A DNA stretch of 64,000 nt, filler included, from Asterionella formosa (taxonomy: Eukaryota), in assembly GCA_002256025.1 (NCBI GenBank). It is 11 parts of 11 records of this genome, joined end to end, with 100 filler letters (N's around TTAATTAATTAA, not from the genome) between each part and the next. Parts side by side here need not be neighbours in the genome. Positions count along the whole stretch, not along the records: positions 29,226 to 34,957 come from NKIB01012944.1; positions 35,058 to 40,788 come from NKIB01012945.1; 9 more parts are not named here. One strand, written 5' to 3'. Position 1 is the stretch's first letter, and each line of letters starts with the position of its first letter. Both the position numbers and the translations under genes were made by a program. The notes below the pieces were generated by a model, which was not told the DNA's origin, did no database searches, and was given only the letters and a program-made list of their open reading frames with translations. This document shows, piece after piece, positions 4,578-48,982 of this stretch.

Positions 4578-4672
4578 ACACCCCCTAATTCTACATCTGA
4601 ACACGCAAATGTTGCTTTATGTCGTAAGCTTTACTGGCTACCGGTAGTCCCTTCGTCCCAAACTTCGTTAAT

Positions 4673-6940: not shown

Positions 6941-7085
6941 ATTTCCGGTCTGTCGATTTCTAGCTACTAGCTAAGAATTTATTTATGACAGATAGGATGT
7001 GTGGTGTCTCAGTGTTAGTGTACCTATAGAGATAGCATCCATTGCTGTGAAGAGGATTTCGGTTGGATCAACCTTCAGAATGGTG

Positions 7086-7352
7086 TGTTGAAATTGCGTC
7101 CCGAAGCACTCTTTGCTTTCTTGTATCCTGTAAGGACACGTCAGGGACCAAATAGGCTGTAGATATGAACAACAATGTCTCCGTGATCGAATGTAATCGT
7201 TCCTAAGAGTTTTAATAGAATTATGGGTTTTTACTGTTGGCGTAGATTGTTTTCGAATTCTCTGGTACCATATTCTTTCTTGATTCATTCGATTCAACAT
7301 GTAGTAGGTAATTTATACCGGGATTTTCTTTCCTAAAATATTTTCTCCAACA
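7086..7352 (-). repeat. 3' LTR of Copia element
   Basis: TGTTG...CAACA termini. Aligns with 48706-48982. Purine-rich AGCAGGAGTG immediately upstream on the minus strand (PPT-like). Confidence 0.88.
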
Positions 7353-11360: not shown

Positions 11361-11560
11361 CTAAGACGCCGTTTACGGTACTTTTTCGAATTTATGTGTA
11401 AAGTGACGTATTTATGTTACTTTTCTAAAATATTATGTTACTTTTTTGAAATATTATGCTACTTTTCCCCTAATTTATTCGGGTTAAACAAAAATTTATT
11501 TCACTTATCGAATAATTATGTGATCACACCAATAATTATGTGTGTTCGTGACAATATATG
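11361..11560. repeat. Unrelated sequence abutting the truncated Copia gag; three ~21-bp tandem units (TATGTTACTTTT core) and a repeated AATAATTATGTG; possible DNA transposon end
   Basis: Similarity to the second Copia copy stops at 11360. Short subterminal-like repeats follow and the sequence runs into a gap. Confidence 0.4.
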
Positions 11561-11694
11561 TTGACCAACTAGCCATCGCAACAGTTTAAAAGCGNNNNNN
11601 NNNNNNNNNNNNNNNNNNNNNNNNNNNNNNNNNNNNNNTTAATTAATTAANNNNNNNNNNNNNNNNNNNNNNNNNNNNNNNNNNNNNNNNNNNN

Positions 11695-11962
11695 TTATTT
11701 TACAGTGTGTGGCACCTGCTGCCAGTCAGCCAAGAATCTTCGTCACCTATTCTTCATGGGCGGAGTTGGCACTCAATTACAGTCAGCCAAGAAAGCGAAA
11801 TCATTTAATGCATGCTGATGATGGATAATGGTTCAAATGATTCCATGCCACAGCAGAATCAATTTACATTACTATTTGGAGCTTGAGGCTTCTAAAGAGG
11901 ACAACAAGTGGAAAGATGTTGATGAGGCTGTGAATGCCATTATTACATTTAAGTTTTTCAGC
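11695..11962 (+). repeat. Left arm of long inverted repeat (at least 268 bp)
   Basis: Reverse complement of 17172-17439 with two mismatches seen by eye. Both arms run into gaps. Confidence 0.93.
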
Positions 11963-12579
11963 CGTGTGTGGCACCTTCCACCTATCATTGAAGAATTTGG
12001 AATATGAGTGCAATCAGATTGCTGAAGGCGATGAATTCATGTTGGAATGCATTGCTTCTGAAAGTAAAACAGCATCACTATTTATTGCTAATCAATCTTG
12101 AGACCACTTCAGACATGGAGGAGTGAAAATGATTAAGCAGTGTATCATACCTGCATAGTATATGTGGCTGCAGTAGTGTTGCAGCCAGGCTTCATCATCC
12201 TTGAAGCTATAACTCAAGTGTCATCTGCAAAATGATAACCTAATGGCAAGAGGCAGGATTCTCATGACAGCAAAGATCCCCTGTATTTTAGTTGGAGCTT
12301 GCACCATCGACTTTTCAACAGGAAAATGCTTCAGCAGCACTGTTCTGGCTGAAGCCTTTGCCGCTCGATTGGACTGTACCATCTGGAATGTTGCTTGAAA
12401 CAGGATTTAAGTTCATTGAAGCAAACCAAAGAAGTTGCCAGAGTCTGTTGTCATTGTAATAGGTAGATAAGATGTGAGAAATGTTGCACTTGAATTACAA
12501 GCAGACTCAGACTTTGTTCTGTTAGCTATTCTCCTATGATATTAGATAATAGATTTCTTGATCTCAGTTTTTTCACATT

Positions 12580-23855: not shown

Positions 23856-25790
23856 ATGCCTCCAAAACCTGTGACTACAAAACCAGTGCGAGATGCGGCA
23901 GTTGCAAGGAGAGTGCCGGATTTGCCTCAAAAGCGAGTGATAGCTGATTTTGGAACCTTCCCTACCAGTTATTTTAATAAAAGGCAAAAGCAGTATACTG
24001 TTCATGACGCCTTTGGTGGTGCCACACCTTCCACTCCGTACATTCCAACAAACGTAAATCCTCCTTTTACTACTGATACTACAAAGGCTCGTTTCAATCG
24101 TTCTATTCCCGTAGATTCTGTCTTGAATTCTGCCAGTGAGAATGAAGATGATGATTCACTCAATTCCGGTTCAAGAAAGGTTGCTGCTATTGAGAACACC
24201 CATAATATTCACCCTACTTTTGTTTTTGAAAAGCTTTGCAATCGAAGTAAACAGGTGAAGTATGACAAACTCAAAGATGAGCACACCAGTCTTCAAGAAA
24301 TCCACAATGACCTTGTTCGTTCTTAATATGAAATCTCATCTGACCTGAATCACTACAAAGGGCAACATTCAGTTCAAGTTTCATCCTTTCGTGGTTAAGA
24401 AGATTCATCTGCTTCAGCAGCAAATTCAGCACGACGTTTGTTTTTAGCTAAAATGGATTCCTCTGTTGTCGCAAAAGTGGTTAGTTATATTTCAAAACCA
24501 AGAAATTTTGCTGTGAACAGGTAAGTGATGTATTGCCATACATCAGACTTACTATGGATGTTTTGATAGTGAAAGGATGTCACTTAAACCTATTTTTGCA
24601 TTTCCCAAAAAGGTTATAAAACACCCAGCCATATCTGCAAGTTGCAACTCCGTAGGCATATTGGATGTGAATGCAGATTGGTTTGCTAACCGATGTATCT
24701 CCCGGTTATTTCAACTAAATCCGCAGTTAGGCAAAGAAGCAGAGAGTGATCCTGAACTTTCAAACTATATGTGGAATGGAAGTGATGCACAACTTCAGNN
24801 NNNNNNNNNNNNNNNNNNNNNNNNNNNNNNNNNNNNNNNNNNNNNNNNNNNNNNNNNNNNNNNNNNNNNNNNNNNNNNNNNNNNNNNNNNNNNNNNNNNN
24901 NNNNNNNNNNNNNNNNNNNNNNNNNNNNNNNNNNNNNNNNNNNNNNNNNNNNNNNNNNNNNNNNNNNNNNNNNNNNNNNNNNNNNNNNNNNNNNNNNNNN
25001 NNNNNNNNNNNNNNNNNNNNNNNNNNNNNNNNNNNNNNNNNNNNNNNNNNNNNNNNNNNNNNNNNNNNNNNNNNNNNNNNNNNNNNNNNNNNNNNNNNNN
25101 NNNNNNNNNNNNNNNNNNNNNNNNNNNNNNNNNNNNNNNNNNNNNNNNNNNNNNNNNNNNNNNNNNNNNNNNNNNNNNNNNNNNNNNNNNNNNNNGTTGG
25201 GCATGCAAGTTGTATGCGTTTGCTCAAGCAAGTTTCATTGATAGAGCAAGCAATTCCTATCACCTATGGATTGATGTTCTTGCTCGAGTTCATTTAATAG
25301 GTAGGGTCAGCCGTGGCGATCCCTATCTTATAGGAGAAAAAATTGGGAAAATTAAATTCCTTCTGAGTGATCGAGCTAAATGTGAATTACAATCAAGGTT
25401 TGTTGGTTCGGTAATTAATGCTTCGACAGAACCTGGATGGATTAATTATAATCCTTCCTCTTATTTACCTCAAGACCAATTACCTCGTTTCTGGCAGGAT
25501 GTTGTTGATATCGGTGGAAAACCACTTTTAAAGAAAAGTACGAGAGAGCAAAGTTCAGTGTCAGGAGGTCTCACTGATCAATGGACTGATGTCTTATTGG
25601 AATATTATCAACAATTGTGTGGTGATCTTGCACAGGATAATCGATCTGTAGCTAGTACAAGCAATGAACCGTAGCGGATTGGTCAGTAAAGCACCTCCAA
25701 GTCACTTTCCAAACACATATTTTTCTTTCCCTGAAATCCCAGAAGAGCAAATGAAGAAATATGGTGGAGATGATGCAATTTTTACGGGTA
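23856..25790 (+). pseudogene. Transposon-associated unknown ORF ('ORF-A' copy 1), disrupted; probable intron from 24521
   Basis: Shares LYxFAQ..IDR, F.LS.RA.CELQS.FVG..INASTE, VDIGGKPL.KK, RE.SSVS.G.TD and YFSFP motifs with 39986-40788. Contains stops, a frameshift and an internal gap. Confidence 0.6.
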
Positions 25791-27151
25791 AGGTGAAACA
25801 CTTGATCGAGATGTTCTTGGACTGTGGCTGCTTCTGCTGGATCGCAGATTTGACATTTCCCTTCCTTGAGATCAAATATGTAATGAACAAAATGATTATT
25901 TCCACAAGATGATCTCTTGCAGTACACTATAATCACATAGGTACACTCAATATATAACGGGTGACAATTGCCACTGTAAGTGTCTCCACCACAATCCATT
26001 TGTGGATTGTCATCAACATCCACGATAACATTCACATTGGATGGATGGAGTTCATGAGTTATGAATTGAATGAGATTTTGAATTGTTTGAAAATCCTAAT
26101 ATGCAAGAGATTTAAGCTCCTCAATTTCTTTTTTGAAATGTAACAAGTTATAAGTCTTTGCAGCATAAGTTCAGACTTCTTGGGGAGTTCAAGAATAAAG
26201 TTCTTCCCAACGCTCGATTTGTGGCTTCCTTTTGGGAATGTTCACATACATGAAGGTTCGAATGGGAGACATGAGTTGACATAATTGACATGCATTTTCC
26301 TCTATACATGAACTGCCCTTGGGATTCTCCATGATGGAATTATTGACAGAATCTTTTTCAGCTTCATATGATTCAATAAAAATACCATTTCGATTATCCC
26401 GGTCATTGGGCATAACGAATTGGGAAAGGTCCAACATAGTCTGGCTGATTATGGTATTTTAGTTCTCCAACAACTTGATCTCTTCCACAATATCCTGAAC
26501 AGAAGTTTGATTTTCGAAAACAGGTTGATCTTGAATGGTAGCATGAACAAAGATTCCTTTATTGTCATCTGGATGTTTCTCTTCATTACCAATCCTTGAC
26601 GAATTATTATTGTTTATAATCTTTTCATTACTTGAAATTGTCGGTTTTTCTTGGAAGGACAACAGAATCTATCAGACCAGCACCTAAGTCATCATCATCT
26701 CCATCCATCAGGTAATTGGGGGTAGGGTTGTCGACATTTTCTGTATTAGAATGCTTAGCCTCTAATTGTAGAGATACCCTTGTCTTGTCACAGGACATAT
26801 CATGCATTATCATGAGAGATCGACTGGCTTCTTCTCGATTTGGTGAACAATCAATAAGAATAGCCCGCTGCTTTTCATTTGAAAAAAATTGGGTCAAATG
26901 TTTTGAATTTGCCATATAAGAGGACCTCTCTGATAAATGCATTGGGGCAACTATGGAATTAACATATGAACTCTTTTTTCTGGAGAATTGTAAACCTTCT
27001 CGAAATCATCAGATTTGGAAGGAAACAGACATGTGCTCTCAACCGATTCAATGAGTCGTTTCAATTTCTTCTTCGATGTTAAAGCATCTTCGAGTGTAAA
27101 CCCAAATAGACTATCCTCTTTGTCTTTCCAAATGTTGTTGTTGTTTTCCAT
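25790..27151 (-). pseudogene. Degenerate ORF with the N-terminal half of a Ulp1/C48-like cysteine protease domain
   Basis: Run of co-oriented broken ORFs ending in NNHFVHYIFDLKEGKCQICDP, which resembles the H..D part of the C48 catalytic triad. Truncated where it meets ORF-A. Confidence 0.5.
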
Positions 27152-28675
27152 GATATCAACTTTGATTGGTATTGATATGACGAGTGATGCAGTATGGTTA
27201 TGCAAAATGATAAACAAGAATGCAATGAAGCCAACGGAGTTCGATTACTATCAATGATGTGATGGGAAGGCAACAGCAGCAGCCACAGCAGCAGTATAAT
27301 TGCATTTGCTTGTACGGATGGTACCACGCACGGTACATCTGTACAAGCTATTCTATATTGGTATTTACGGCTATGGCATTACATTCATCAAATTATCTAT
27401 TTTGATGTAATGATAGAGATGATAAAAACATCTTATTATTGTAAAATTATTTAGTAATATATATTAGAAATATTAGCAAGAACATTTTATTACATGTGCA
27501 TTTATTTGATCTTATAAATGTGATCAAACTATCATATGTTTAGTTACGAGTGATTGTGAGTATGTGATAATGAAATATAAGTTAACTGTTGTAATCATAC
27601 GATTATATGATATTGACGGTACCTGGTACGATCTCTTTTTAGTGTACAGAACCCTACTTCACCTTTTTTGTACGAGATTGTATTATAGCATACCCCCCAT
27701 CAAGTATAGGTACCAATCTCACCTTGTTTGTACGAGACGTGTATTGCATACTCAACATCACCTACAGGTACCGGTACCAACGTCACCTTGCTTGTTTGTA
27801 CGAGAAGACCATTTGATTGTTGCGTACCAGGTACCGGTAATCTCAGCCACTCCCTCAACTTAACCCTATCGCTGTGATTGACATGATCTAAATTCAAATC
27901 AATCGTATACTGTACGCACGCTTTCTTACAAAAATATCAGTGCAACATACATACGGCACTGGTACCTGGTACCAGGTAGTAGGTATCCGAACGATGGACA
28001 TGATTTAAATTCAAATCAAATGTCTACGTATGTTTACTTGCAAAAATATCTGTACAACATTTCGGTACCTGCTGTACAACAACAATACCGGTAGATGAAA
28101 CAAACTCACACAATATATACCAGTACCAGTGCTCACACAGAAGGAGTCTCGTACATGAATATCCATACAGCTCTGTATATGGAAATATATGGAAATCTAT
28201 TTTCTACAACAAAAAGGTACGTATATGTACATAAACCCATGTACGACTGTCCTATTGCCACACGAATGATTCAAATTCAGTTGCTGATGGTTTGCAACCA
28301 GTGATGGTAAAAAAAAATACACACATTTATGAAAATACATATAGTTGTAATATTCTCTGAGATGATAAATATTATTCATATTACATAATAAATCGAATTG
28401 ATATGATCATATGATCGCCATTATAAGATGCATCACATGAATTAGATGTTTTCTATTTGCAGACAAGCATGTAAAGCAAAAACAGATACATACATTTGCT
28501 ATGGGGCCCAGGGGTTCAGAAGATATGTTTTTCATCCATATATCCATTCATACATGTATTGTTTCAATTGAATGAGTCTTCCCGCACATGGAGGAGCACT
28601 TGTCATGTGCAGATAGAAGCATTTGCTCTGGCATGACCCTACTTCTTGGAACTTGTAGTAGGAGGATGCAAATTA

Positions 28676-30720: not shown

Positions 30721-33539
30721 ATGGCATGCATGACGGCACTTGATCTCAGTGGGGTTACCGGCATCCCCTCCGCTTCTCTAGTCTTCGGAAGTGCCGCAAT
30801 GAACGGAGATGAATACGTCCGGTGCGCAAAGTGTGGCTTCGGAGGGTGCGATGTCCGAGTTTCTGGTTGTGGATGCACTCTTCATGCGGTCAGTATTTTC
30901 TTCTGTTTTGCGTTTACGTATGGTTTGTACGAAGTGTTGCGTAGACGTCACAAATTGTTTCGTTCGACAATCAGATTCCTGACATCATTCTTTGCGATGA
31001 CTGCTCTTTGGAGCTTGGCGTTTGTAATTTCCATGCCATTTTTCATGCGGAACTCGTTGGACCCAACTGAGATGAGATTATAATGAGTTTGTTTTCAATT
31101 GTTGGAACTCTTCAGCATCCCTACCGGTAGTCACGTGGCGACTTAGTCCTACTTCCGGAGGTTTATTTACTTAGGGTTGGGAGCGATTGTCACGCACGCG
31201 ACAAACGCACTGTGTAATTCTTTCGTCGGGTTTTGCATTTTATGCTTCGCTAACGAACTTGTCGATCATCGTGCTCACTCCGTTTATTCTTTTGTATTGC
31301 TCTCACAGAGATGCATTGCTATCAAACCGGAAGGGTCGCTCTCCTTTTGTCCAGAGTGTGCCCGCGAAACGACTGGTCTTGTTCTCTTTCCGATGTCGTT
31401 TCGTGAGATCGATGAAGCCCGCAAGACGGTTGCTGTGTTGGCGAACACCGGTCGTCGCGGACGTAAGCGGAAGAACTCAGAAAGCGGCACCGAAGAGAAG
31501 TGCGCCTATGTCTCGGAACGCCGTACTGGCCGCTGGACGCCGGAGGAAACGGCCTACTGTGATGTCCTCATTGACAAGTTTGCTGCTGGTCAGCTACCTC
31601 TTGCTGAAGGCATCAAACTCAACGACTTTCTTGGAAGCATGCTGAAGTCCAAGCAGTCGCGCCTCACCAAGAAGATGAAGAATGCGAAACTCAGCTCCAA
31701 GACTTTTGAGCGCGTCTTGGGTCACGTTGGTGATCACAACGATGCTCGAGACTTCTCGGAAGTTGAGGATTCTTTCTTTCATTCGATCCAGTGCCACCAA
31801 GAGCGTGCCGAAATTAAGTTTCACATGCAGAAGGAATGGCGCGAGATGTTTAGCAACTACTGTGCTGCTGTAGGTCAGCCCCTTGATGCGGACGCATGGT
31901 TGAGCAGTGTCGAAGAGATGGATCGCAGGGCTTCTCATGCGAAGGATGCCGCCCGTATGTCTCGACGCAAGATCATGATGGGACATGCCCTTCGTCTGGA
32001 TAGCAAGAACCCTGACTCTGGTGTCTTCATCGAGAAGAGCGAGGCCGAGAAATTGCTCGACCAGAATTCCCCTGACTGCATCGACCACGATTCCCTGGAT
32101 GCTGAGGAGGAGCTGCTCGCTTTCTTTTCGGAAAAGCCCACATTTGACGAGAAGACGAAGTCTATTCCTGGATTTGGAGAATCCAACAGCAAGAACAGTT
32201 TGCTTCATTCTGCTCCCTTCTTGAGCAAGGCTATCTCTTATATGCAGCGCCACAGTGTCCCGTTTGAACATATTGATATTTGGGTGCCCTCCTTTGTTCC
32301 TACTACTGGAGAACACAGTGCTGAGGAAGCAGGAAACACTACTTGCCGTTTGTGCTACGCTGGCAGCGCTACTGTGGACTTGAAGGTTGACCAAGAAGGA
32401 AAGTGCTATGTACCCGTGAGTGAAGAAGAGGCTTTTTACCTGCACGCGTTCGGAGACTACAGCCAAAAATTTTCTTTCGATGTTGGCTGTGGTTTACCAG
32501 GACGTGTATACCAGAGCGGTCTCCCCACCTGGGAACAAAGTGTTCAGAACGCCCCCCACCACCATTTTGAACGCTGTGGAGGCGCCCGCAATTTTGGAAT
32601 TAAGACGGTCGTCGGAATTCCTATTGCTAGTCCCAATGTTGGTCGCATTGTAGTGAATCTATATTCTCGTCATGATCGCAACAAGGACCAGGAACTCGTG
32701 GGACGCTTATCTGAGGAGTTCTCAAGGGTAAGTTGGACATTTGTTATTTTGTTTGATTGTTTAAACCTTTTTACTAATTTCATGCCCACTTTTCACAGCT
32801 TATGCCATCTCCTAAATGGAAGCTTGTTGTCGATATTGGAGATCCCGAGCCAGTAGAAACCCTTATATCTTGTCCTACAACTGCTTCTATCGGTGCTTCT
32901 GCGCATCAACAGTCCATGTTGACCACCAGCTTAACTGCATCTGTTCCCACTTCTACTAACCATCACCACATGCATCAACAAATGCCAGAAACTACAAATA
33001 TGGTCAGCATGCATACCCATGCGCCTCCTGAGTCGTTTCCACTAGCATCTGCTAGCTCAGACAAAGACCACCGCATTGACGAATTGGTGTCATTACTTGG
33101 GGAATATATGCCCTCAGACCCACATTCTCACTTGGGTTCTTACATCCAGGGATTTATGTCCTTGCGATTGATGCTCCTCCGTCCAAATAGGTCCCAAGTG
33201 GAAGAAGACCTTGTCCGAACCATGCTGGGCTCGTTCTCATCCTACACTTCTGGTGGACGCGCCAAAAATGACATTGCGCTGATGCTTGCGCGAGACTTTG
33301 TATTTCTGACTCAATCGCAAGTCCATCAACCTCAGCAACTGTTGCCCCAAGCACATTCTTTTCTTCAAGTCGGACAATCTGTCATGATGCCACCAAGTTC
33401 TGGTTCCAATCATTTTTCATTTTTCGGTATCCCTTCTTCTGCAAATTATTCCGAGAACAGCTACCACAATTCCCCAGCTCTAGCCCCCATTCAATTGTCG
33501 GGAAACGGGACTGATACGTTGTCGATTGTTTCGACTTGA
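30721..33539 (+). CDS. RING-variant (C4HC3) + Myb-like + NLP-type GAF domain protein, putative transcription regulator; introns 30889-31308 and 32728-32798
   Basis: Splicing joins CAKC..CGCTLHA|RC..CPEC in frame. NLS-like RRGRKRK; Myb-like GRWTPEETAY..L...F; GAF-like HIDIWVP...YSQKFSF..GCGLPGRVYQSGLPTW...FERCGGA..FGIKTVVGIPI; low-complexity tail. Start codon (30721, 30730 or 30799) uncertain. Confidence 0.85.
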
Positions 33540-34858: not shown

Positions 34859-34930
34859 TGTACCGGTAGCCGAAGACAAATCAACACGGTGATAAATGTA
34901 TACATACCGGCTAAAATCTCATTAGTCTAC

Positions 34931-34957
34931 CCGTATACTTCATTGTCCTGGACCCCC
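34931..34957 (+). repeat. Putative DNA transposon terminus (CCGTATACTTCATTGTCCTGGACCCCC)
   Basis: Identical to 46491-46517. Both copies lie at or near a contig end before a gap. Confidence 0.6.
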
Positions 34958-35057
34958 NNNNNNNNNNNNNNNNNNNNNNNNNNNNNNNNNNNNNNNNNNN
35001 NTTAATTAATTAANNNNNNNNNNNNNNNNNNNNNNNNNNNNNNNNNNNNNNNNNNNN

Positions 35058-36371
35058 CAGAAGATGATAGTGGATGGTCATGTGGGCCATTTACAATTGT
35101 GAAAGTATTGGAAACTCTAATGCAACTAGAAAGGAATGGCAAAACCAAATTTCTTGGCAACCGGGCACAATTCTGTTTGGAGACAGAGTCCTGGAAAGCT
35201 TTAAAACGTCAGGTGGTAGCAACAGATCGAACAGACGATTTGTTATCTGTTACATCTGACCCACCAACCAAGTCAACATACTTTCATCTTGGAACAGTTT
35301 GGCCTCAAGTGACAACAACAAACATTCGTGAGGATATGTTTCAGTAGGAAATAACTGTTCTTCAATTTTGTATCGACAATATTTTGAGCTCCTATTTAGA
35401 TTTAAAAATGTTGAACGAAGTTTTTGGACGACTTCCTTGCAATTCATCTTTCAAGAAGGTTGATGTTGTCAACGTGAAATCCATGATCCAACAAAGTAAT
35501 GACAAACTTGCTACCTTCAAATGGTATAATCATGCACCTCTTGGCCAAATTCTGGATGCATCAAAATTGACAAAAAGTTGAAAAATATTTTGTAACTGAT
35601 GATAGCCCTTCTGGAATCAAATTGAAAAAGTTTACAGACTCATATCGAACTGCAGTTGAAAAGTGGAGAAGAAAAATTTCGGACGAAACGAGAAGGACCA
35701 TCTTAGGTTCTTTGGGAGTGAAAAAGAACAAATAATGCATGGACCATTGGGATCATCCAATCTCATCATTCCTTAGGACATTTCAGTTTGTGAAAACCTT
35801 GAACAGACGATTTCTTATCCATTACATCTGACCTACCAAACAAGTCAACATACTTTCATCTTGGAACAGTTTGGCCTCAAGTGACAACGACAAATTCTCA
35901 TGGGGATATGTTTCAGTTGGAAATAACTGTTCTTCAATTTTGTATCGACAATATTTTGAGCTCCTATTTAGATTTAAAAATGTTGAACGAAGTTTTTGGA
36001 CGACTTCCTTGCAACTCTTCTTTCAAGAAGGATGAAGTTGTCTACGTAAAATCCATGATACAACAAAGTAATGACAAACTTGCTCCCTTCAAATGGTATA
36101 ATCATGCACCTATTGGCCAAATTTCTGGATGCATCAAAATTGACAAAAAGCTGAAAGAAAATTTTGTTTCTGATGATAGCCCTTCTGGAATCAACTTGAA
36201 GAAGTTTACAGACTCATATCGAACTGCAGTTGAAAAGTGGAGAAGAAAAATTTCGGACGAAACGAGAAGGACCACTTAGATTTCTTTGGGAGTGAAAAAG
36301 AACAAATAATGCATGGACCATTGGGATCATCCAATCTAATTATTCCTTAGGAATTTTTAGTTTGTGAAAAC
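35058..36371 (+). pseudogene. C-terminal part of a Ulp1/C48-like protease ORF with a 572-bp tandem duplication (35229-35800 / 35801-36371)
   Basis: First codons after the gap read EDDSGWSCGPFTIVKVLE, resembling the catalytic-Cys motif (Q/E-x-D-x-x-x-S/D-C-G-x-F). Two diverged consecutive copies of the downstream segment, with stops. Confidence 0.55.
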
Positions 36372-36443
36372 ATTCTAATAACTTACCTAGTATGTGAAAC
36401 TATAAATATTATCACTATTATTTCTATTATTCTTGTATATTTA

Positions 36444-39400
36444 TCAACGTTGTTCGCTTGCTAGTTTTTGGTCCCACCCAATTGATTTCCATAACTGACG
36501 TGGAGGTATGGCAACATAAAAATTATCATTCTGTATCTGTTCCAAAACTTCTTGCGTTTTCAGAGCTTTCCTTGATTCCAGTGGTTTCAATGCAGGAACA
36601 ACAAATGCTGCCGAAAGTATGTTATGAAATTCATCAACGCTCAATTCAGTTGTATCATTGCATAAGGTGGTGTCTCCTCTTGCAAAAAACATACGTTTAT
36701 GAATTTTCAATTCAGTTTAACTTTTCGAGGAAAGAATACAGGCTAAGAGAATGGTTGTTGTGTTGGAGAAAATAACATTACCCCAAAGAAGTAGTTTTGC
36801 CGGAACTGTGTAGGAACTTGATTCATCTCCTTTCTCTCAGTTCACTTCAACCCAGTCAAACCATTCATGACCAGAGATTCCTGCATTTGAATCATTATTC
36901 CATTTCGGATGGCATCTGAAAACAGTAGTTTGGCCGAGAGAGTTACTTTCAATTTTAACATGATAATAAATCAATCCTTACAATGGAAACAGGCCCAACC
37001 CCATCTTCAAGACTTTTTATTTTTGCTATTTCTATTGCTTAATTCGCAATGCTCTTTACGTAGTTGGCCCCCTTCGGTAAATCAGGATGAACCAATTGCG
37101 ACCACAACAAGGGTGCATCCTTACTCCGTGATATATGCCCAATCTTATTAGGGACACCTGCTATAGCCCATAGACCATTTGATGATGAAGCAGAGAATTG
37201 AACTTTAATAGGAAGGGATGCATGGTGAATGTATCTTGGTAGGCGATATTCCAAATTATCAGGCGACATACTAGGCAACCACATCATTGTATCCTGAATC
37301 ATTCCCTCGAAATCAATTTCTGTCGAAATACCCTCAGTTACATTCATATGTACTACTTTACTCATCTTCTTTTGTTTGTTTTCTGTCTGTAATGTATCAC
37401 TTGCAAAAACAATTTTTCGTACCAAGGAAAACTGCCTTGTTTCACATGACCTTTTTAAAATGTCATGCATTAATCGATGTAATTGTCCATTGACACGCTT
37501 ACTGGGTCGTTTCAATTTGTCTTTCAAAAAGACTCCAAATATCCACCAAAGAAATTAAGAGGGGATCCGAGCGAATTTCCTAATCAGAGGAGGGTAATGT
37601 TTCATTCCATGAAATTTTGCCATTCGTAAGCCAATTTGAGATTTCATTTCCCGTTGGGGACCAATCATAATCTTAGTAACTGACATAAATCTCTTCACCC
37701 TTTCCTCTAAAATGTCAATACATGTTGATGTATACTGCGGTATGAATAAAGTGTCATTGATATATATACATAAACCATAACAGCAATGTGAAATCCTTTT
37801 CTAGGTGCATGTTCTCTGAACCCGCCCATCATTCCACCCATTGAAAAAATAGTTAACAGACATAATCCGGGAATTTCTTGCCCTGACATTTTTGACAAAG
37901 CTGTCATCCCAGATCTGTATGACAATTTTGGAATGTCACGATCGTTTTGCCTTTCCAAATGTCTATTAAAATGCATATCTAGCACTTTGTTCGAAGTATA
38001 GTTCCGAAAATACATTTCTGGTGCTGGTACAAGTGTTGGGTCTTGATTTTTGCCAGTGTAGATATTTTTTGTGACTGGTGCGTGTGTCCTTTTTGGTCTT
38101 AGCCCGTTACTTCTTCTTCGGTTGCTCTTGATCAAAAAAAGCAGTGTCTGTTGTTTCAGTGATAAGTTTATGATCAGAGATGTTCTCTGGAAAATTTGGT
38201 GATTTTCTTTCTTTATAAAATCATGTCCATTCTTCAGGGATAGTCCGGTAGTTGTACAATGATTCCAAAATGTACTTAAATATTCCATGTAGTAATTGAT
38301 GAAGAACCTCAAATGTAGTTGCACTAAATAATCCTTATAGGTCACCACCAAAAAATGCGACGATAGAAATCCTGTAACAGAATGGTATAATTTGAGTCGA
38401 CATAAGGACAAGTCGTCACCAGATAAGCAACTTATTATTCATTTGTTTCTCCAGATCACTGACTTCAATGTCTGGCAAAAGATATACCAATTGCCATCCA
38501 TCAACTTTTTTCCTTCCTTCTAACGTTAAGTTTAACTTTGTCAACAAAAACGGATGCTCTGAATGTTTCATTTTTTATTTTATCAATAGGTGAACCATCA
38601 CTGAAAACTGCTAGGGCAACAAATAAACACCCTGTCTTCAACACTCCATTTTCTGATGCAGGCGAATTGTTGAATGAATTTTCAAACCAAGTCGCAGAAG
38701 TTACTTCGTCATATATGCATGCGTTCTCCACAAATTGTAAGTTTCACTTGTGGGTGACATACAAAATGTTGCATGATATCGGAATCACGTAACAATCCTG
38801 CCATGAGCTGTACTGGTTCGAAATAATGGAGTGTGCGTGGGATGATCATGTTTGAATTGTTATCAATCTGTGTTTGTTTGGTCAACAGTTGACCACCAGC
38901 TAATGATGGTGGAAATGAAATATCCATGCGTATTTTCCAAGTCTGGTAGTATGGAGCTTGATACCTTCCATCAAAATATTTCATTGCTTTTGCCTTGAAC
39001 AGCCATTTCATTAGATGATCAAAGTAAACTGGTGGAAGATAATTCTCGTTGAGGAATAACATGAGTTCTAATTCGATTGGATGCACGCATGTTTAGGGAA
39101 TGTTTACTTGGAAGTTGAAATTGAGGAGGAAGGGGCATTTCCATTGCATTTTCAGGGAGAAAGCCGGTGTGATCTTGGAAATCTGAATATTGCATGGTCT
39201 CTGAATTCAATCCTTGGAGAGTTTTAAGTCTCAATTGTTCGTCTTGTTGTGACTGAATATTTTTATAAACTGAATCTTCGCTGTCGTCATGAAATGGATG
39301 ATTGTGGCCACTTGATTCAAGGAAAGGACACATAATCTCTTTTTGTTGTCTACTCTCCCTGAATGCTGCAGCAGTTACACTGCCATTAACTTCTTTCCTT

Positions 39401-39612
39401 GAATGATTCGATGCACTACCGCAATACACAGTTTCATTATGTATTCCAGGAACTCGATGTTCTTGCAGGCAATGTTGACAGTGACCATATGCATAAAAAA
39501 CACGGTTGCTACAATTTCGGTTGTGAGACTCAGATGGGGATTTGTTCTTCTGAAATGTGTAGTTACACAAATAACACCATTGCAATGTCCACAAAGACAT
39601 TGCAAATTTCAA
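36444..39612 (-). mobile_element. Degenerate Plavaka-like (CMC/EnSpm-related) transposase
   Basis: Cys/His-rich N-terminus; VTSATWF; ALAVFSDGSPIDK; RQNDRDIPKLSYRSGMTALSKMSGQEIPGL; C-terminal RCHPKW...GHEWFDWVEV. Many frameshifts. Family recognised from recalled motifs. Confidence 0.68.
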
Positions 39613-39783
39613 ATGATGACAAAGTCAGGATATGAACAGGATAGAATGAAAATGAATTATTAATAATAAATTTAGCATCACTCCGATCATGCTGTGCTGG
39701 ACAATACAGAGTCGTGAAATTATCACTCCACCATAATAGTAAAAATGGAGGTATACCGCTACATACAGTACAGGCGCCAGTAC

Positions 39784-39955
39784 TAGTAGTATAGATCAAC
39801 ATCAATGTTTTCCTAACATCTATGATATGGTTCGCATTGTAGAAGTCTCACAGTAACTATATTTTTATATAGTAGTATAGAGCAACATCAATGTTTTCCT
39901 AACATCTATGATATGGTTCGCATTGTAGAAGTCTCGCACTAACTATATTTTTATA
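39784..39955. repeat. Two-copy 86-bp tandem repeat
   Basis: TAGTAGTATAGA..AACATCAATGTTTTCCTAACATCTATGATATGGTTCGCATTGTAGAAGTCTC.. starts at 39784 and 39870. Confidence 0.9.
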
Positions 39956-39985
39956 ATGTAGCTACTAAGCATGCATTGGATTCTA

Positions 39986-40788
39986 TTAGATCCATTCAAA
40001 ATCAATGTCGTCATCAATTTTCCGTTGATTAATGCGTTCATTGCAATCAATATTCTTCTCAAGAACATTTGGTTGAAAAGGTTCAACATATTGATGCATA
40101 TCCTCTTCACTTACATTGGGAAATGAGAAGTATGAGTGTGGGTAGATGATATTTCTTCCGAAAGTAGCAATTCCACTAGGATTCCTTCCATATTCAGATC
40201 GATTCTTTTGTGAAAGTCCAGTGTAGATTTCCTTATAATAACCGAGTAAATCATCAGTCAATTTATCAGTGAAACCATTTGAAACTGAACTTTCTTCCCT
40301 CACACTTTTTTGATAAGTGGTTTCCCACCAATGTCGACAAAATCAGTAGAATGACGAATATCGTTCTCTGAGATTTCATGTGTATCTGGATTGAAACCCA
40401 AATATTTTTGTTGCAATCGGAATTTTCCTTTCAGCACCAAGACGCAAAAGGCTTCTGTACTGGCATTGATCAGCAAACCAACAAAACATGATTGCAATTC
40501 ACACTGTGCCCGAAGACTTAGTTGAAATTTGGCTTGGTCACACCAGATTTGTCTACTGTTAAAAATGGTTTTCCACGGCTTGTCCTGCCTATAAAATAAA
40601 CTGGAGCAAGAACGCACATCACGCCAGACTTGGCATCCTTGGCTTCCCCTGTCAATTTCCTTTGACTGCGCAAAACGATAAAGCGTGAACACCACCTAAT
40701 AAAGTCATCAATATCCATAGTCTGGAAGTTATATTTTGTTAAACCAGCTGGTGTGTCGTGAATTATGTTAGCATTTTGAAATTGAAAC
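39986..40788 (-). pseudogene. Transposon-associated unknown ORF ('ORF-A' copy 2), 3' part, frameshifted
   Basis: Homologous to 25195-25790 (see ORF-A copy 1). Immediately upstream of and co-oriented with the Plavaka-like transposase. Confidence 0.6.
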
Positions 40789-40888
40789 NNNNNNNNNNNN
40801 NNNNNNNNNNNNNNNNNNNNNNNNNNNNNNNNTTAATTAATTAANNNNNNNNNNNNNNNNNNNNNNNNNNNNNNNNNNNNNNNNNNNN

Positions 40889-42096
40889 GATACTTGGCGT
40901 ATTGCTATTCCTACATCATTATTGGATCCTATTATTAATTGGTATCATCAGATGTTAGCTCATGTGGGTATGACAAGATTAAATGCTACAATTGCTACAC
41001 ATTTTTATCACCCTATATTAAAAACAAGAGTGGAACATATTGTAAGAGTATGTGAAGCATGTCAACGTACAAAATTACCTGGTACTGGTTTTGGTGAACT
41101 TCCACCCAGGAATGCATTATTATTACCATGGTCAGAAGTCGCAGTAGATCTAATTGGTCCATGGAAGATAACAGTGGCTGCTCAAACGATTGAATTTCGT
41201 GCTCTAACTTGTATTGACACAGTCACCAATTTAGCAGAAATTTCACGTATCATCAATAAAACATCAGAATATATTGCAATGAAATTTGAAAATGATTGGT
41301 TAGCCAGATATCCCCGTCCAGAACGTTGTATACATGACAATGGAGGTGAATTTACTGGTGCTCCTTTCTTACACATGTTAGTATTGAATGGAATCAAAGA
41401 TGTGACTCCCACAGTAAAGAATCCACAAGCAAATGCTATCTGTGCACGTTTCCATCAATCTATCAGCAATAGTCTACGAGTTATGTTAAAGGCTCATCCT
41501 CCAATCAATGAATTTCAAGCCCAAAATATTGTGGATACATGTTTTGCAGCTGCGTCATATGCAGCTCGAGCTACTATTCATAGTATATTACGTATTTCAC
41601 CAGGAGCATGGGTTTTCCAACGTGATATGATATTAAATATTCCTTTGATTACAGATTTACAATTAATACATCAACGTCGACAGGTGATAATTGACGAACG
41701 TTTACGTCGTGCAAATTTCCGTCGTCGATCTTATGATTACAAAGTGGGTGACGAGATTTTAATATTATTGGATAATCCTACTACTTTGGATGATCGTGGA
41801 CGAGGTCCTTATACTATTATTCAAGTACATGCCAATGGTACAGTTACTTTTCAACGCACTATGCATATTACCGAACGAATTAATATTCGTCGTATCAAAC
41901 CTTTTCATAGGTAAAAGGTTTTCCCTCAAGTGTGGGAGAGTGAGCAATCCTGCACATCGATACAGATATATATAGAGTTGGGGTTATGTCAAATATATCG
42001 GAATTCAATAATGAGAGAACTCGACTAACACCCATTCTATACTTTTGATGTCAGTTCAGGAAATGAGTTATACATAAGGATTAATTAATAAGCTCA
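40889..42096 (+). mobile_element. Ty3/Gypsy LTR retrotransposon 3' end: integrase (to 41914), PPT and short 3' LTR (41941-42096)
   Basis: HHCC finger (YHQMLAH...CEACQ), VDLIGPW, HDNGGEF, NPQANAICARFH (catalytic E appears replaced by A), RGPY. GGGAGAG purine tract directly before the TGAGC...GCTCA-bounded LTR. Confidence 0.88.
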
Positions 42097-42607
42097 TATA
42101 TTCAACAAATACTACTACTTCTAGTTAGATACTTCACCAGGTACCTGGTACCTGGCATGGTACCAGTACTTGGTTCCCCGCTGGTACCTGGTACATCATA
42201 CAGTTCCGCCGGTAAATACCGAGTGCTGCAGAGACATATCATATGAAAACTGTTCTATATACCAGTGAACGTACGGTATTTACATTAGATACGGGTAAAT
42301 GTTTATACATATCCCCCTATGCGTAATTTGAATGTCTTACTCTCCGGAGAAACAGGCCATAAAACAGCAAAACAACGAAGATCATCCATACTACATACAA
42401 AAATAAATAATTTGACATGATTCATAAAATTACTACGGGGGAAAACGAAAAGTCGCTCAATAAATCGAGTTCTCATACCGGTATTGTCTCCTTGCAAGTG
42501 CAACATCAATCTCGTCAGACCCACATCCAAACGTACGAGAGTAATTATGCTTTACCTACCCTTATTGCTTCGATCTCGCTGATGCTCACACGCTTTTTGA
42601 TTACAGA

Positions 42608-43424
42608 ATGACATCCGGGGGCGCCATTGTGCGAGCTGCAGAGAAGATAGGCCTCAAGCAACTCTTTGACGATGATTCGTCAACCTACACATATCTACTT
42701 TGGGATACAGCAACCAAGGATGCAATTCTAGTAGACCCGGTGGACATTCAAGTCGACCGTGATTTGCAAGCAGTGGAGGACCTAGGCCTAACTCTCTGCT
42801 ACGGCATTAACACTCATGCTCATGCTGGTATGTATCACTGAGATGTTGGAGATTCTCCGGTTTCCCGCCAAGGTCTTGACTCATCTCATTCCCCCATTTC
42901 TATCGTTAGATCACATAACCGGAACTGGTATTCTCAAACAACGTGTTGCTGGGCTAAATTCTGTCATTGCAAAGGCTTCCGGAGCAAAAGCCGATATTCA
43001 TGTAGAGTCCGGAGATCGAATTGTTTTTGGGAATCGCTTTGTTGAAGTCAGAGCTACTCCTGGTCACACCAATGGTTGTGTGTCCTACGTCGCCGATGAT
43101 ATGTCATTTGTTTTAACCGGTGACGCTTTACTCATACAGGGATGTGGTCGGACCGACTTTCAAGGTGGATCCGCCGAATTGCTGTACAACTCCGTTCATT
43201 CTCAACTATTCAGTTTGCCGGATGACTGCATTATTTACCCAGCTCATGATTACAATGGAAGAGTTTCATCGACGGTTGGAGTTGAAAAGAGCACGAATCC
43301 ACGTTTGAGCAAGTCGCTGCCAGATTTCGTTACCATCATGGCTAATCTAAATCTAAGCTACCCAGGAAAGTTTGATGTGGCAGTTCCAGCCAATATGAGA
43401 TGCGGCTTCCCGGATATAGAGTAG
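42608..43424 (+). CDS. ETHE1: Persulfide dioxygenase (ETHE1-like, metallo-beta-lactamase fold); intron 42828-42909
   Basis: [22 protein letters not shown] rebuilt across the intron, [39 protein letters not shown]. An additional upstream exon (acceptor at 42606) is possible. Confidence 0.93.
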
Positions 43425-44028: not shown

Positions 44029-45048
44029 CTATCCCCTCCCAAAATGTCTTTCTTCAACGTCGGCATCAGTTTTTCGAATTTTCCCTCCATTTTTTACAAC
44101 AAACCAAACTGTAAGGGCCCATCGTCTATCAATCTCCGAATTTGGCGCGAAACTAGGTGATACATCGTGAACCAGCGAATCTGACCAGAAGAGAAGCAAC
44201 CTATCGCCCCTCGGAGCGAATACTTTCATCTTCCCAATTTCTGGGACATCATATGCGCGAAAGTAGCCGCCTCTTGGGTCAGTTTCTCCATGATCTGCAT
44301 CGTCGGAGTGAGAGCCAGAGGGTTGAAGGTACAGCAAGGCAGTCATCTTTCTCATGTCTCCAATTCCATCGCTCCCGCCTAAATTATCAATATGTTTGTC
44401 GTATTTGGAACCCCCGCCGAGACAAACTGCTAATTTGTTAGTCTGCTGCGTTCCTGACAAATGAAAATCCGAAGGCACTAATGCATTGATTCTTTCAGCC
44501 AAGTTCTGCGTTAACGTGACGACGTATTCCACCAAACGAGGAGTCGCTTGGTATCCCTGGGCACCTCCCTCTATCTGCGTCGAAAGGACCCCATCCTTTT
44601 GATATGAAATTACCGACTGAGTCTCATCGTCCCAACGCGTTGATTGGGAAGGCACCATGGTGGGAATTAGGGATTCGGCTTCCGCTCGAAGAGCGTCAAT
44701 GAAAGGGCCCCCAAGGAAATTATCCACGCAAAAAATGAAGTTTGGGTCCAATTCTCCTCCCTTGTATGTGGTCATGGGGGATAAGTCAATTTTTTGGATG
44801 CGTGAGGAGATGAGTGCCATTCGACCTTCTGCAGTCGAGAGATCTGATATTTCTTTTGGTGGCTTCTTCTTCTTGGAAATAGCTTTTGTTTTGGAAGCAC
44901 CGAATCCAGCGAATGCCATTGTCGAGGAGCCTTTAAAGATTTGTAAAGAGCCTTCAACCAGCAAAATACGACTTGAAACATGGTTGACTATTGCGAGAGA
45001 GAGGATGGAGAGAAGGAATGGTGGACAATAAAACCGCAAACGCGACAT
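44029..45048 (-). CDS. 2OG-Fe(II) dioxygenase, EGLN/PHD prolyl-hydroxylase-like, with N-terminal targeting peptide
   Basis: YDKHIDN (HxD), RKMTALLYL, APRGDRLLLFWSD..VHDV, RWALTVW. Hydrophobic leader followed by a Ser/Lys-rich stretch. Confidence 0.87.
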   Translation of the reverse strand: MSRLRFYCPPFLLSILSLAIVNHVSSRILLVEGSLQIFKGSSTMAFAGFGASKTKAISKKKKPPKEISDLSTAEGRMALISSRIQKIDLSPMTTYKGGELDPNFIFCVDNFLGGPFIDALRAEAESLIPTMVPSQSTRWDDETQSVISYQKDGVLSTQIEGGAQGYQATPRLVEYVVTLTQNLAERINALVPSDFHLSGTQQTNKLAVCLGGGSKYDKHIDNLGGSDGIGDMRKMTALLYLQPSGSHSDDADHGETDPRGGYFRAYDVPEIGKMKVFAPRGDRLLLFWSDSLVHDVSPSFAPNSEIDRRWALTVWFVVKNGGKIRKTDADVEERHFGRG

Positions 45049-45394
45049 GGCGAACTTTTGCTTCAATGATGATGCAGACTGTCGTTTTTATATTCTTGCT
45101 TGTTGTCATGTCATGTGGTCGTGTTTTTTGTTTTTGTTTTTGTTTTATTTTATATTATTTATGTTGAAACATTTTTCTAACAAACTGGAAGGTCCGGTAA
45201 TCAGCGAATTGCGCGCACTATAAACTAAAAATTCCACGTAGCGGTTTCAACCTACCGGTACTTCATTCGAAGTCTGACCGGCTCACCAATTCCGATATGA
45301 TGAAAAATCTAAAAATATTTTCATGTATTTATATTACATGTAACCATTATAAAGTTTCAAATGGAAAAGCGCTGCCACCTTTCACAGCAGAATC

Positions 45395-46000: not shown

Positions 46001-46490
46001 CATTTTGACAATAAAAACCACTAACAGCTTAATGTCTATGTAAACAATTATTTAAAGAATAACGGAGTGGAGCAAAATTTAGGGATTCGACAATTTTTGG
46101 AGGTGTACCCCTGCCTTTTCTCGTATGTAAATCGATGAACAGGAAACGAGCAACCTGCACACTATGTGCGCTGATTACCGGACCTTCCTGCCTTGTGTAT
46201 ACCCCGGTATTACTTGTAAAAATCAACCCAAGTTGTATTTTTCTGAAGGCCTCAAGTATTGTTCTACTGCGGATGGTAAAATACCTTGATGGTATTTTTG
46301 CGTACTTGATCACGAGAAAATAAAGTATTGTACAACAAAGAAAAAAATCAACAACCCGGTTGCATTGACAGTTGATTTTGCACTCCCTTTTTGGTTGAAA
46401 AATCAACTCTGATTAGTCGTAGAAAGGCCGGGATGTGCGTGATGATGCTAAAATATGGTGGTACCAGGTACCAGATACCCAGTACTGGTA

Positions 46491-46580
46491 CCGTATACTT
46501 CATTGTCCTGGACCCCCCAATGTACACTGCCGTGACTGAATTTGACTGATTTTACTTAAGGGGGGCCCAGGACAATGAAG
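46491..46580. repeat. Putative transposon terminus with 21-bp inverted repeat (46498-46518 / 46560-46580)
   Basis: CTTCATTGTCCTGGACCCCCC ... GGGGGGCCCAGGACAATGAAG with one mismatch. First 27 bp identical to 34931-34957. Confidence 0.7.
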
Positions 46581-46715
46581 AGATTTCCCTTATAATGGAC
46601 CTAAGTAAATTTCTTNNNNNNNNNNNNNNNNNNNNNNNNNNNNNNNNNNNNNNNNNNNNTTAATTAATTAANNNNNNNNNNNNNNNNNNNNNNNNNNNNN
46701 NNNNNNNNNNNNNNN

Positions 46716-48982
46716 TTCCAATGTCAGGTCCGAAAATTCTCTTGGCAATCTTGATATCATTGGTTATCACTGGATTGGTTTTGATCGTATCCATGCGAAT
46801 TATTGCCTTGAAACTGTTAATCGGTTGATGGCATGCATGCCCTAGGCATGAAATAGATCACGAGCTCGCTTGGCTCTCTCAACTTGACGTTCAGTGTAGA
46901 ATGTTTTGTTTTCTTCAACTATTTTTAACATTAGAGTATTCTCAGCCTTAACAGCTGTATGAGGCTTGAAAACATATAGATTCATTCCAATTCTTTCGAA
47001 TCAAACTGGTTTGTCAGGCAAATGAACAATAAATGCATCTTCTTTCTCAGACTCGTAGGTAATCATGTACCTATCTGCCATTTTGGCATATCTGAAGATG
47101 TTGGTGATTGCCTTATCATTAAACCATACTTCTACCCATTGTGGAAGATCAGCCTTCATATTATTGACCATGGATCCACCATTTGTGGCCAGGTGCATGC
47201 TTCCATTGGTCAACATTCAAATGTTTTCAACCATTTTTGGATTGCAAAAGACTGGCTGTGACACTTGATTGATTATCCAAAAGTATCCAGTCACGCATCT
47301 CAGATGCTTGATAAAATTGTAGTTTGATATGAGTTCTCGCCCATTCAACTTGATTGACATTTGCTTGTTGTGAAGCTTGTGATGACTGTGGGTTGTTGGA
47401 ATAAACAGAGGTAACCGTATTCATGTCCGATGATGTAGTAGCCTGTGCATGACTTTGTTGGGCCTAGTTGATTGCCCATTCCTCTTTAGGTTTATTCTTC
47501 TCGCGACATGACGGTGATTTATGTCCAGCTCTTCCACAGTAGTAACATTTTCCTTCTAACTGGCTGTGTGAACGATAAGGTCACATCTTCATCTTCCTTA
47601 CCTGCATCCTTTTGTTCCCTGTCTTTATTATATGGTCTCCTGGTTTCTTGTGAATGTTGTGTTTATTTGTCACATCGAACCTATGGTTACTGAGCACATT
47701 ATTTGATTTAGCGAAAATCTGTTGGCATTGATCATTGCCGAGTGACTGTTGAGTGTTCAACCCAGTCATAATTGATCCATATTTGGCTTTATCTGGATTA
47801 TTGAGGTATGAATAGGCCAGAAATTGAATGAAAGTTTGTTCACGAAATTTATCTTGTAGCTTGATGTCTGTCTCGTTGCACCCATCCATGGCTTCAACGA
47901 ACTTGGTGAGGATAATGGGTCCTCCAATGTGTGTCTTGAGCACATCTCTTGCCACATGACATCCTTGGTGTAGTCTTGTAGACTTTCTCCTTCTTTTTGC
48001 TTTGTATTAAAAAGCGTTCTCATTGCATCTAAAATCATCGACATTGAATATCGATTCTCTTGAAAATTTAATGTGTGTTCTTTAATTGCCACAAGCAATG
48101 TTATTGGGTTATTTTTGATCCTATTGTAATCAGATCTCGATTTGATCTTGTTCTTCATGGCCCTGTGGCATCTTTCCCAGAGAAACGCATACTATGGTGT
48201 TAACATTTTCATAGGTCTGTACCCTCTTGCTATACGCATAGTAATCAGCCTTAAACTCGATCTCAAAATACCAATTCTCTGCAGTGCGATCTTCTTCTGT
48301 TGTTGCAGAACTAAGCTGCATTCTTCGCTTCCATGCCAATGTGCTCATTGGTTCTAATAACTTGAACGCAGTTCCTACGTCGTTGCCACAGTCGAACACT
48401 TTCTTGATGTAGTTGGTGAGGCACTCAGTTGTAGCCTCATATTCAGATGCCAGCTTTGCCAATCCAAGGTAGTAGTTATAGTCATTAACTGACTTCTTGA
48501 TGGTGTGAGAAGCATTATTGCATCCTCCCTTGGCTGAGCCTTCTTAGAAAACTTTCCTTTGCCACTCATGATGCGCCTTGTGCGACTACTTCAGACTTTG
48601 GATGGTCTGGTGGTACCCTCAAATCTTGTCTCCGGACTCTCAACAGTCACCTGTTGTTAGATTGTAATATTACGGCTCTTCCTTTCTGGCTAATTCTTTT
48701 AAAACTGTTGAAATTGCGTCCCAAAGCCCTCTATTGCTTTCTTGTATTCTGTAAGGACACGTCAGGGACCAAATAGGCTGTAGATATGATCAACAATATG
48801 ACTGAAATCGACTGAAATCATTCCTAAGAGTTTTAATAGAATTATGGGTTTTACTAGCGATGTAGATTGTTTTCGAACTCTGAGTTTTCTCTGGTACCAT
48901 ATTCTTTTTTGATTCATTCGATTCAATATGTAGTAGGTAATTCATACCGGGATTTTTCTTTCCTAAAATAATCTCTCCAACA
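46716..48982 (-). mobile_element. Second Copia (CoDi-like) copy: 5' LTR 48706-48982, degenerate gag and protease; 3' part lost in gap
   Basis: LTR TGTTG...CAACA homologous to 7086-7352; gag starting MSGKGKFSKK at 48569; QKEGESLQDYTK; LLDNQSS; DNA homologous to ~10370-11360. Confidence 0.92.

Follow-up and report, generated by a model that had tools for sequence, protein, structure and literature searches.

A probable Plavaka-type DNA transposon family with a predicted CE-clan protease gene in Asterionella formosa, and the short insertions borne by its copies

The stretch of DNA analyzed here, referred to as the window (64,000 nucleotides, filler included), is from Asterionella formosa (assembly GCA_002256025.1) and is made up of contigs of ~5.7 kb joined in a row, with ten identical 100-nucleotide linkers of the composition N44-TTAATTAATTAA-N44 between them. 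A preliminary description had placed a three-gene Plavaka-like DNA transposon in this window, consisting of an open reading frame (ORF) of no assigned function, ORF-A, a transposase and a convergent Ulp1-like protease. Remnants of all three genes were recovered from a single contig, G000:C12945 (window positions 35058-40788, 5.7 kb), which is bounded by artificial linkers at 34958-35057 and 40789-40888, neither of which has a strand. The gene set and the gene order proved to be real, but the description had overlooked that this copy is dead: none of the three genes is an intact ORF on C12945. As regards its identity and anatomy, the contig is very probably a defunct inner piece of a Plavaka-type cut-and-paste DNA transposon with a length of about 12 kb. 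Metagenome runs containing the stretch were labelled algae, freshwater, lake or river.

The central gene is a pseudogene of a Plavaka-type DDE transposase (36444-39600, minus strand), identified by profile and motifs, for which the family ORF is 1,167 amino acids (aa) long. The transposase reported at 39612-36444 is thus present and has its stop at 36444, but the ATG is located at 39600 and the frame is not intact. After recurrent short insertions had been set aside, the transposase of the family could be read as a single frame of 1,167 aa, in which the motifs D331, D439, C461xxC464, H786xxxH790 and E810 were located, with the CxxC and H(3)H motifs falling between D439 and E810. The acidic residues are kept in most aligned copies (D331 in 22 of 24, D439 in 26 of 29 and E810 in 18 of 21). 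In the window, D331 is at 38599, H561 at 38301, H786 and H790 at 37611 and 37599, and E810 at 37535. A deletion of 398 bp at 38354/38355 has removed aa 410-542 from the C12945 copy, including D439, the second catalytic aspartate, and the CxxC motif, which makes this copy dead, and many small insertions and deletions (indels) are present in addition. The Plavaka profile PF18759 matched two natural pieces from sister copies with 62.5 and 36.1 bits, at a cut-off of 26.3. It was not reached by the remaining family transposase pieces that were scanned, including three from the window, where the lack of a match is explained by the broken state of the region. An explanation of the broken transposase and protease frames by introns or programmed frameshifts was rejected, since dropping the recurrent short insertions yields frames of 1,167 and 718 aa, and the protease frame is naturally open in another contig, C14015. 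Other Plavaka families, with 21-27% identity to this transposase and open frames of considerable length (the longest one listed has 839 aa), were seen in loci L052-L060 and L188-L191, and these distant families are probably younger.

ORF-A is represented by its broken last exon (39986-40748, minus strand), followed by the 3' end of intron 2 (40749-40788, minus strand, placed by the family gene model), where the contig ends. Minus-strand remnants of this gene were thus found at 40788-39986, as claimed. The family gene is about 570 aa long and has two GT-AG introns of 46 and 111 nucleotides, the first of which has the same phase in a sister family, as judged by eye. All of the 85 homologues found are at least 43% identical. 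ORF-A had no match in Pfam, none of its homologues was found among longer proteins, and its best Atlas score was under 0.9. The structural model has a predicted local distance difference test score (pLDDT) of 45 and a best Z-score of 4.1; being of low confidence and without a fold match, it shows no new fold. The ratio of nonsynonymous to synonymous substitution rates (dN/dS) is 0.19 (0.03-0.75) for exon 3 and 0.43 in the comparison with a sister family. The suggestion of a conserved orphan accessory gene is thereby borne out, in that ORF-A recurs in sister families and has been under purifying selection. An 86-bp tandem duplication (39784-39955, family D10) lies between ORF-A and the transposase gene.

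The third gene is convergent with the other two. C12945 holds only the C-terminal part of it, approximately 225 aa (aa ~493-718), in a broken state (35058-35735, plus strand), with the catalytic cysteine codon at 35081-35083 and the histidine, aspartate and glutamine codons beyond the contig end. The plus-strand frame opening with EDDSGWSCGPF was located at 35060, as described, although it is not an intact ORF here. The 3' part of the gene has been duplicated in tandem over 572 bp (35229-36374, plus strand; units 35229-35800 and 35801-36374, second stop 36307-36309), and this duplication is private to the C12945 copy among those aligned. The family frame comprises 718 aa and is naturally open as 720 aa in C14015 (L192:194-2353). 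This piece (G000:C14015:1-3628) has no transposase gene, and contains open exons 2-3 of ORF-A beside the open protease gene. The exact deletion joint of C14015 was found nowhere else, and C14015 may be a recent copy of the helper type or, being short and ending inside the element, a collapsed contig.

A fold model was obtained from a 390-aa piece of the protease and compared with 48,161 chains using VIA-align. The top 29 matches were all CE-clan proteases, with NEDP1 at Z 9.6 (root-mean-square deviation 4.0, 171 aligned residues), NopD at 9.5, XopD at 9.4 and Ulp1 at 8.1, while the first unrelated chain scored 4.7. The top Foldseek match was also NEDP1 (E 3.9e-3), and the top Atlas match was to a cluster that is 38% C48 (score 0.92). 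Residues assigned by motif rather than geometry to the catalytic positions are almost invariably kept: H396 in 28 of 28 copies, D413 in 23 of 24, Q492 in 21 of 22 and C501 in 25 of 25. Thus, the third gene is predicted by modelling to have the CE-clan (Ulp1/SENP/NEDP1) fold, with the residues His-Asp-Gln-Cys in that order and kept. Several observations weigh against this assignment. The Pfam C48 profile PF02902 was matched neither by any protease piece nor by the whole 720-aa protein, the pLDDT of the model is a middling 56, no Foldseek match reached E 0.001, and the Atlas match has just 149 of 256 features in common. The Ulp1-like protease of the preliminary description therefore stands as regards the fold, but not as regards a Pfam C48 match. 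A search of the genome with PF02902 recovered just four other loci. No matches were obtained in a search of the PDB sequences with the protease piece at E 10, nor in a search of viral contigs. More distant relatives, with 26-35% identity, were identified in metagenomes, two of them with a second protease-like domain, and two scans of metagenomes for the genomic context of these distant homologues recovered nothing. In the metagenome proteins P0078 and P0083, an N-terminal protease-like domain is joined to a C-terminal one that is related to the element protease.

Relative to C14015, the protease part has a dN/dS of 0.28 (0.14-0.58) and the tail one of 0.65 (0.30-1.64); in the comparison with a sister family, the value is 0.30. 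During the spread of the family, purifying selection acted on both accessory genes.

DNA searches with the three gene regions, in each of which only 40 candidates were scored, yielded 83, 43 and 42 matches with approximately 84-98% identity. An alignment of the long loci revealed sharp left and right borders with flanks that differ between the copies. The ends are imperfect inverted repeats of 23 bp, CGTCTGCAAATAAAAA(G/C)TATCAT, such that the element starts with CGT and finishes with ACG. The end pattern, which permitted only CG, TG or CA as the first two bases, gave 902 matches in 68.4 Mb of the genome, sister families included, as compared to none for a reversed control. The element starts with CG in 40, with TG in 14 and with CA in 6 of the 60 ends sampled, and the TG and CA starts are as expected from the decay of methylated CG; transitions at CpG amount to 9.5% as compared to 2.7% elsewhere, as under methylation. 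The target duplication is 2 bp long; among 13 end pairs inspected by eye, it was exact in 8 and differed by one base in 3, while the other 2 could not be read or paired. In the working consensus of 12.0 kb, C12945 spans positions 3174-8578, and the order of the genes is fixed, with ORF-A followed by the transposase in the same orientation and the protease facing them.

In the 42 family contigs, which were selected by gene or end matches and many of which are clipped by contig or fetch limits, all three genes are represented by 300 bp or more in 19 cases, two genes in 14, one in 7 and none in 2. The multi-gene Plavaka-type family proposed in the preliminary description is supported. Sister families carry the same genes at 27-59% protein identity. 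Three RNA runs contain small shares of the stretch (0.07-0.17), and the contigs of one of them cover 29 of 30 bins, which cannot show transcription.

Blocks of tandem repeats with variable copy number were observed around family positions 1685-1920, upstream of ORF-A, and 11140-11420, near the right end (e.g., L039 and L080), and are candidate binding arrays. A derivative of a sister family was seen at 23856-28465 in the window, in which an ORF-A homologue on the plus strand adjoins the 5' half of the protease gene on the minus strand, the transposase is gone, and the right end of the clan is located at ~28465. Another right end of the clan, with ~93% identity to the family end, is located at 6503 on contig C12940, adjoining a long terminal repeat (LTR)-type repeat. 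Two foreign insertions were seen inside family copies. In L082 (G000:C12189), the transposase copy contains a 41-bp insertion with (TAACCC)4, resembling a telomere repeat captured at a repaired break. In G000:C13769, a 1.2-kb insertion (~11520-12730) has a TTAA duplication and GG..CC inverted ends, and we take it to be Kolobok-like.

We compared the family to known transposon systems. By its sequence, the transposase fits the CMCT-clade Plavaka definition as set out in the main text of Kojima 2025 (PMC12730594). PlavakaA of the Agaricomycotina is described there as having 2-bp duplications and TGT..ACA ends. The family is classified as Plavaka-type (CACTA/RAG-related CMCT clade) but not as PlavakaA, because the 2-bp duplication (8 of 13 exact in the family) is common to both, while the first base of the ends differs. 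Two points weigh against this reading of the element: the family ends are CGT..ACG in 40 of 60 cases rather than the TGT..ACA of PlavakaA, and a whole transposase frame was present in none of the family copies fetched. The hosts also differ, with Agaricomycotina on one side and an alga on the other, and so does the cargo, which here is a CE-clan protease and a spliced orphan gene; no TET/JBP gene was found among the long frames of the family. Neither "Ulp1" nor "diatom" is found in the main text of PMC12730594. The family ends correspond neither to the CATCA..TGATG termini of PlavakaB nor to the CAC..GTG termini of EnSpm/CACTA proper.

Giant Plavaka elements of red algae, as presented in the main text of a preprint (bioRxiv 10.1101/2025.02.11.637652), are 17-19 kb long and carry PAG1-3, with methylase/SET and ParB/2OG cargo. 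Like the present family they are large, high-copy, mostly degenerate and algal, with accessory genes and internal tandem repeats, but they are larger and have other cargo, and the word "protease" is absent from that main text. A literature search for Plavaka elements in diatoms or for Plavaka excision footprints identified no relevant paper; Repbase, most subscription papers and the red-algal supplements were outside its scope and may hold similar families.

The copies of the family are marked by short insertions. In 42 copies, corresponding to 256 kb of alignment, 1,027 insertions but only 65 deletions of 3-6 bp were counted, or about four short insertions per kb. In total, 263 of the 460 four-base insertions, at approximately 152 sites, fit the pattern XY-GC-XY, as compared to a mean of 3.8 and a maximum of 12 for random strings. 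GC accounted for 72 of 100 unambiguous fillers in the four-base class, and the fillers of the three-base class were C in 54 cases, G in 51, T in 7 and A in 4, independently of the flanks. In the five-base scars, GTC, which corresponds to bases 2-4 of the element end, was the commonest unambiguous filler (7 cases versus 1 for its reverse complement). In the C12945 copy, 19 insertions of 3-6 bp were listed, seven of which are clean XY-GC-XY scars by eye (37218-40615, at ~37221, 37571, 37824, 37973, 38430, 38722 and 40615). At least four of these seven sites were without the insertion in contigs of all four sequencing runs compared, and the majority of the family in these four other runs, as judged from contigs, lacks the C12945 insertions. 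Scars at hot spots are linked to nearby single-nucleotide polymorphisms (SNPs) with a median best r2 of 0.35, as compared to 0.60 between SNPs; weak linkage is expected if scars recur, although the SNP pairs themselves often show all four gametes, which weakens the test. Assembler errors are an unlikely source of the scars, given their fixed grammar, their CpG-decayed variants and their target-like context in a comparison of contigs rather than raw reads.

We consider it slightly more probable than its opposite that the XY-G, XY-C and XY-GC-XY insertions, by which the copies are wrecked, are excision scars of this Plavaka clan. The clan is a candidate for having written them because the profile of the scar sites matches its insertion sites: a weight matrix of 155 scar sites scored 59 clan insertion flanks at z 3.8. 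That the clan makes 2-bp duplications was counted in favor of the link, and at two of eight nested clan insertion sites a G/C scar was found on the same two bases in other copies, with a background of 2.8% per site. In this reading, the clan would have jumped into repeats, above all into its own copies, and left scars when jumping out again.

In known excision footprints of Ac/Ds (PMC5873905), which are formed through hairpins, small stereotyped fillers are centred on the complement of the border base. The filler is templated by the flank in Ac/Ds, whereas here it does not vary with the flank (G, C or GC), and neither target copy is lost. Neither flank-templated P-nucleotides nor CG end remnants are supported by the filler counts. 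The G-then-C order of the filler complements the terminal base at each end, as would suit a hairpin step; a hairpin intermediate might form on the flank and be cut one base off the usual register, giving the G-then-C filler. Set against the attribution to the clan are the following observations. The profile match drops to z 2.0 without position -1. The two-of-eight coincidence is a ~2% event, and five of the eight nested sites are free of scars. Plain remnants of C..G element ends would leave CG, while the observed filler is GC, and on the hairpin reading the terminal G would have to be restored prior to insertion, by a step left unexplained. Finally, an unrelated LTR-type repeat, Copia-like by eye without a Pfam match, is also scarred, with 12 of its 21 four-base insertions fitting the pattern. 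Two copies of a high-copy LTR-type repeat (689 candidates) that bears XY-GC-XY as well were seen at 7092-11360 and 46716-48970 in the window.

That the scars have another source is a serious possibility, if somewhat short of an even chance. They could derive from an element with G..C ends and 2-bp duplications, or from a repeat-directed process of breakage and repair that adds GC, with the Plavaka clan a mere victim that shares easy targets. A constant GC filler is what would be expected for 1-nucleotide remnants of G..C ends, GC scars are present in another repeat too, and the genome contains other, distant Plavaka families, for which no element ends could be delimited. On the other hand, none of the four target-continuous large insertions inside copies has G..C ends with a 2-bp duplication, and one of them is a clan element with TT on both sides. 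The agreement of the scar site profile with the clan flanks likewise speaks for the clan, as do the 4.6-fold higher density of XY-GC-XY in the Plavaka-type family (1.03 per kb versus 0.22 per kb in the unrelated LTR-type repeat) and the finding that ~11 of 60 sampled clan ends are located inside clan DNA (12 rows, one only 29 bp).

With regard to the accessory genes, SUMO (small ubiquitin-like modifier) proteases are also cargo of Zisupton elements, according to the preliminary description. In plants, the KIU/VANC genes of VANDAL Mutator-like elements (MULEs) carry an Ulp1 domain (PMC13317346), and CACTA elements with Peptidase_C48, which belong to the same wider clade as the present family, have been reported, with the function of the domain described as unknown and an advantage suspected (PMC8978399). 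The likeness lies in a SUMO-protease-like domain on a DNA transposon. In these plant elements, the domain is detectable with Pfam and located within ORF2 or VANC, whereas the gene of the present family is free-standing and convergent, lies below Pfam detection, and features a charged region at its N terminus together with a CxxC motif.

In analogy to KIU/VANC (PMC13317346), the protease might offset silencing by taking SUMO off chromatin or off proteins encoded by the element itself. ORF-A might act as a DNA-binding helper, like TnpA or VANC. We hold this pair of roles tentatively, at nearly even chances; the TnpA- or VANC-like role of ORF-A is our guess from its position and the tandem repeats inside the element. 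The host genome has 12 SUMO-like matches. It is also quite conceivable, though we would not call it probable, that the protease targets NEDD8 or ubiquitin or processes proteins of the element, instead of countering SUMO-based silencing. A NEDD8 protease gives the best fold match, the same list includes deubiquitylases and viral processing proteases, the family is too distant for PF02902, and a serine replaces the catalytic cysteine in P0078, so that a non-catalytic use exists in the wider family. Against this, the SUMO proteases NopD, XopD, SENP3/7 and Ulp1 tie with the NEDD8 protease within about 1.5 Z, and Ulp1 domains recur in MULE and CACTA elements, once on the anti-silencing gene VANC (PMC13317346, PMC8978399). 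It is very improbable that ORF-A and the protease are passive host fragments without a role for the element: transposase-less derivatives and most copies do carry both genes broken, and substitutions within copies have nearly no codon-position bias, but dN/dS stays below 1 in comparisons of subfamilies and of sister families (0.28-0.43), the two genes are found again in sister families with 27-56% identity, and the four host C48 loci score about zero bits with the family protease profile, leaving no host donor in sight.

Taken furthest, the clan would be the writer of the constant-GC scars of the genome, through flank hairpins one base off register that leave each terminal base inverted, would have moved through repeats and its own copies so frequently as to frameshift itself to death at about four scars per kb, and would have been kept moving in methylated repeats by the CE protease and ORF-A as an anti-silencing pair; we regard this combined account as speculative and rather unlikely.

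The layout of the preliminary description, in which a single element extends across the gap from a terminus at position 34931, is virtually untenable: the motif is indeed repeated in the genome (27 of 27 candidates matched), but it lies on C12944, a separate contig behind an artificial linker, belongs to an unrelated miniature inverted-repeat transposable element (MITE) of ~675 bp and did not turn up in any of the ten loci of 16-20 kb that surround family copies, while the true element ends differ from it and are located ~3.5 kb further out. The motif (34929-34957, plus strand) is the inverted end of this MITE, which is outside the element. It is preceded by TA in every context printed, and both ends were found ~675 bp apart in L048:881-1555. 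The MITE has CCG ends, one of which has an internal inverted repeat of the terminal motif, and its sequence was also seen at 46489-46615 in the window.

The contig after C12945 contains an integrase fragment (PF17921) of an LTR retrotransposon (40889-41914), which is unrelated to the element. Host-type genes, each on a contig of its own, encode a bHLH-MYC_N-like domain (31147-33539), a metallo-beta-lactamase fold (42545-43424) and a 2OG-Fe(II) oxygenase (44032-45087).

Plavaka elements are known from fungi and from red algae, with DNA-modifying cargo. To these, the present analysis adds an algal Plavaka-type family whose ends are CG and whose CE-clan protease has been under selection and escapes Pfam, and C14015 offers an open natural copy that can be assayed. 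The type of cargo is in itself unsurprising, as MULE and CACTA elements with Ulp1 domains are already known. If the scars are those of the clan, about a thousand footprints in 256 kb would record how a relative of RAG and CACTA cuts DNA, and excision scars would rank as a major cause of indels in the repeats of the A. formosa genome. If the clan wrote them by off-register hairpins, they would amount to a first record of the chemistry by which Plavaka elements excise, and to an instance of a family driven extinct by its own footprints.

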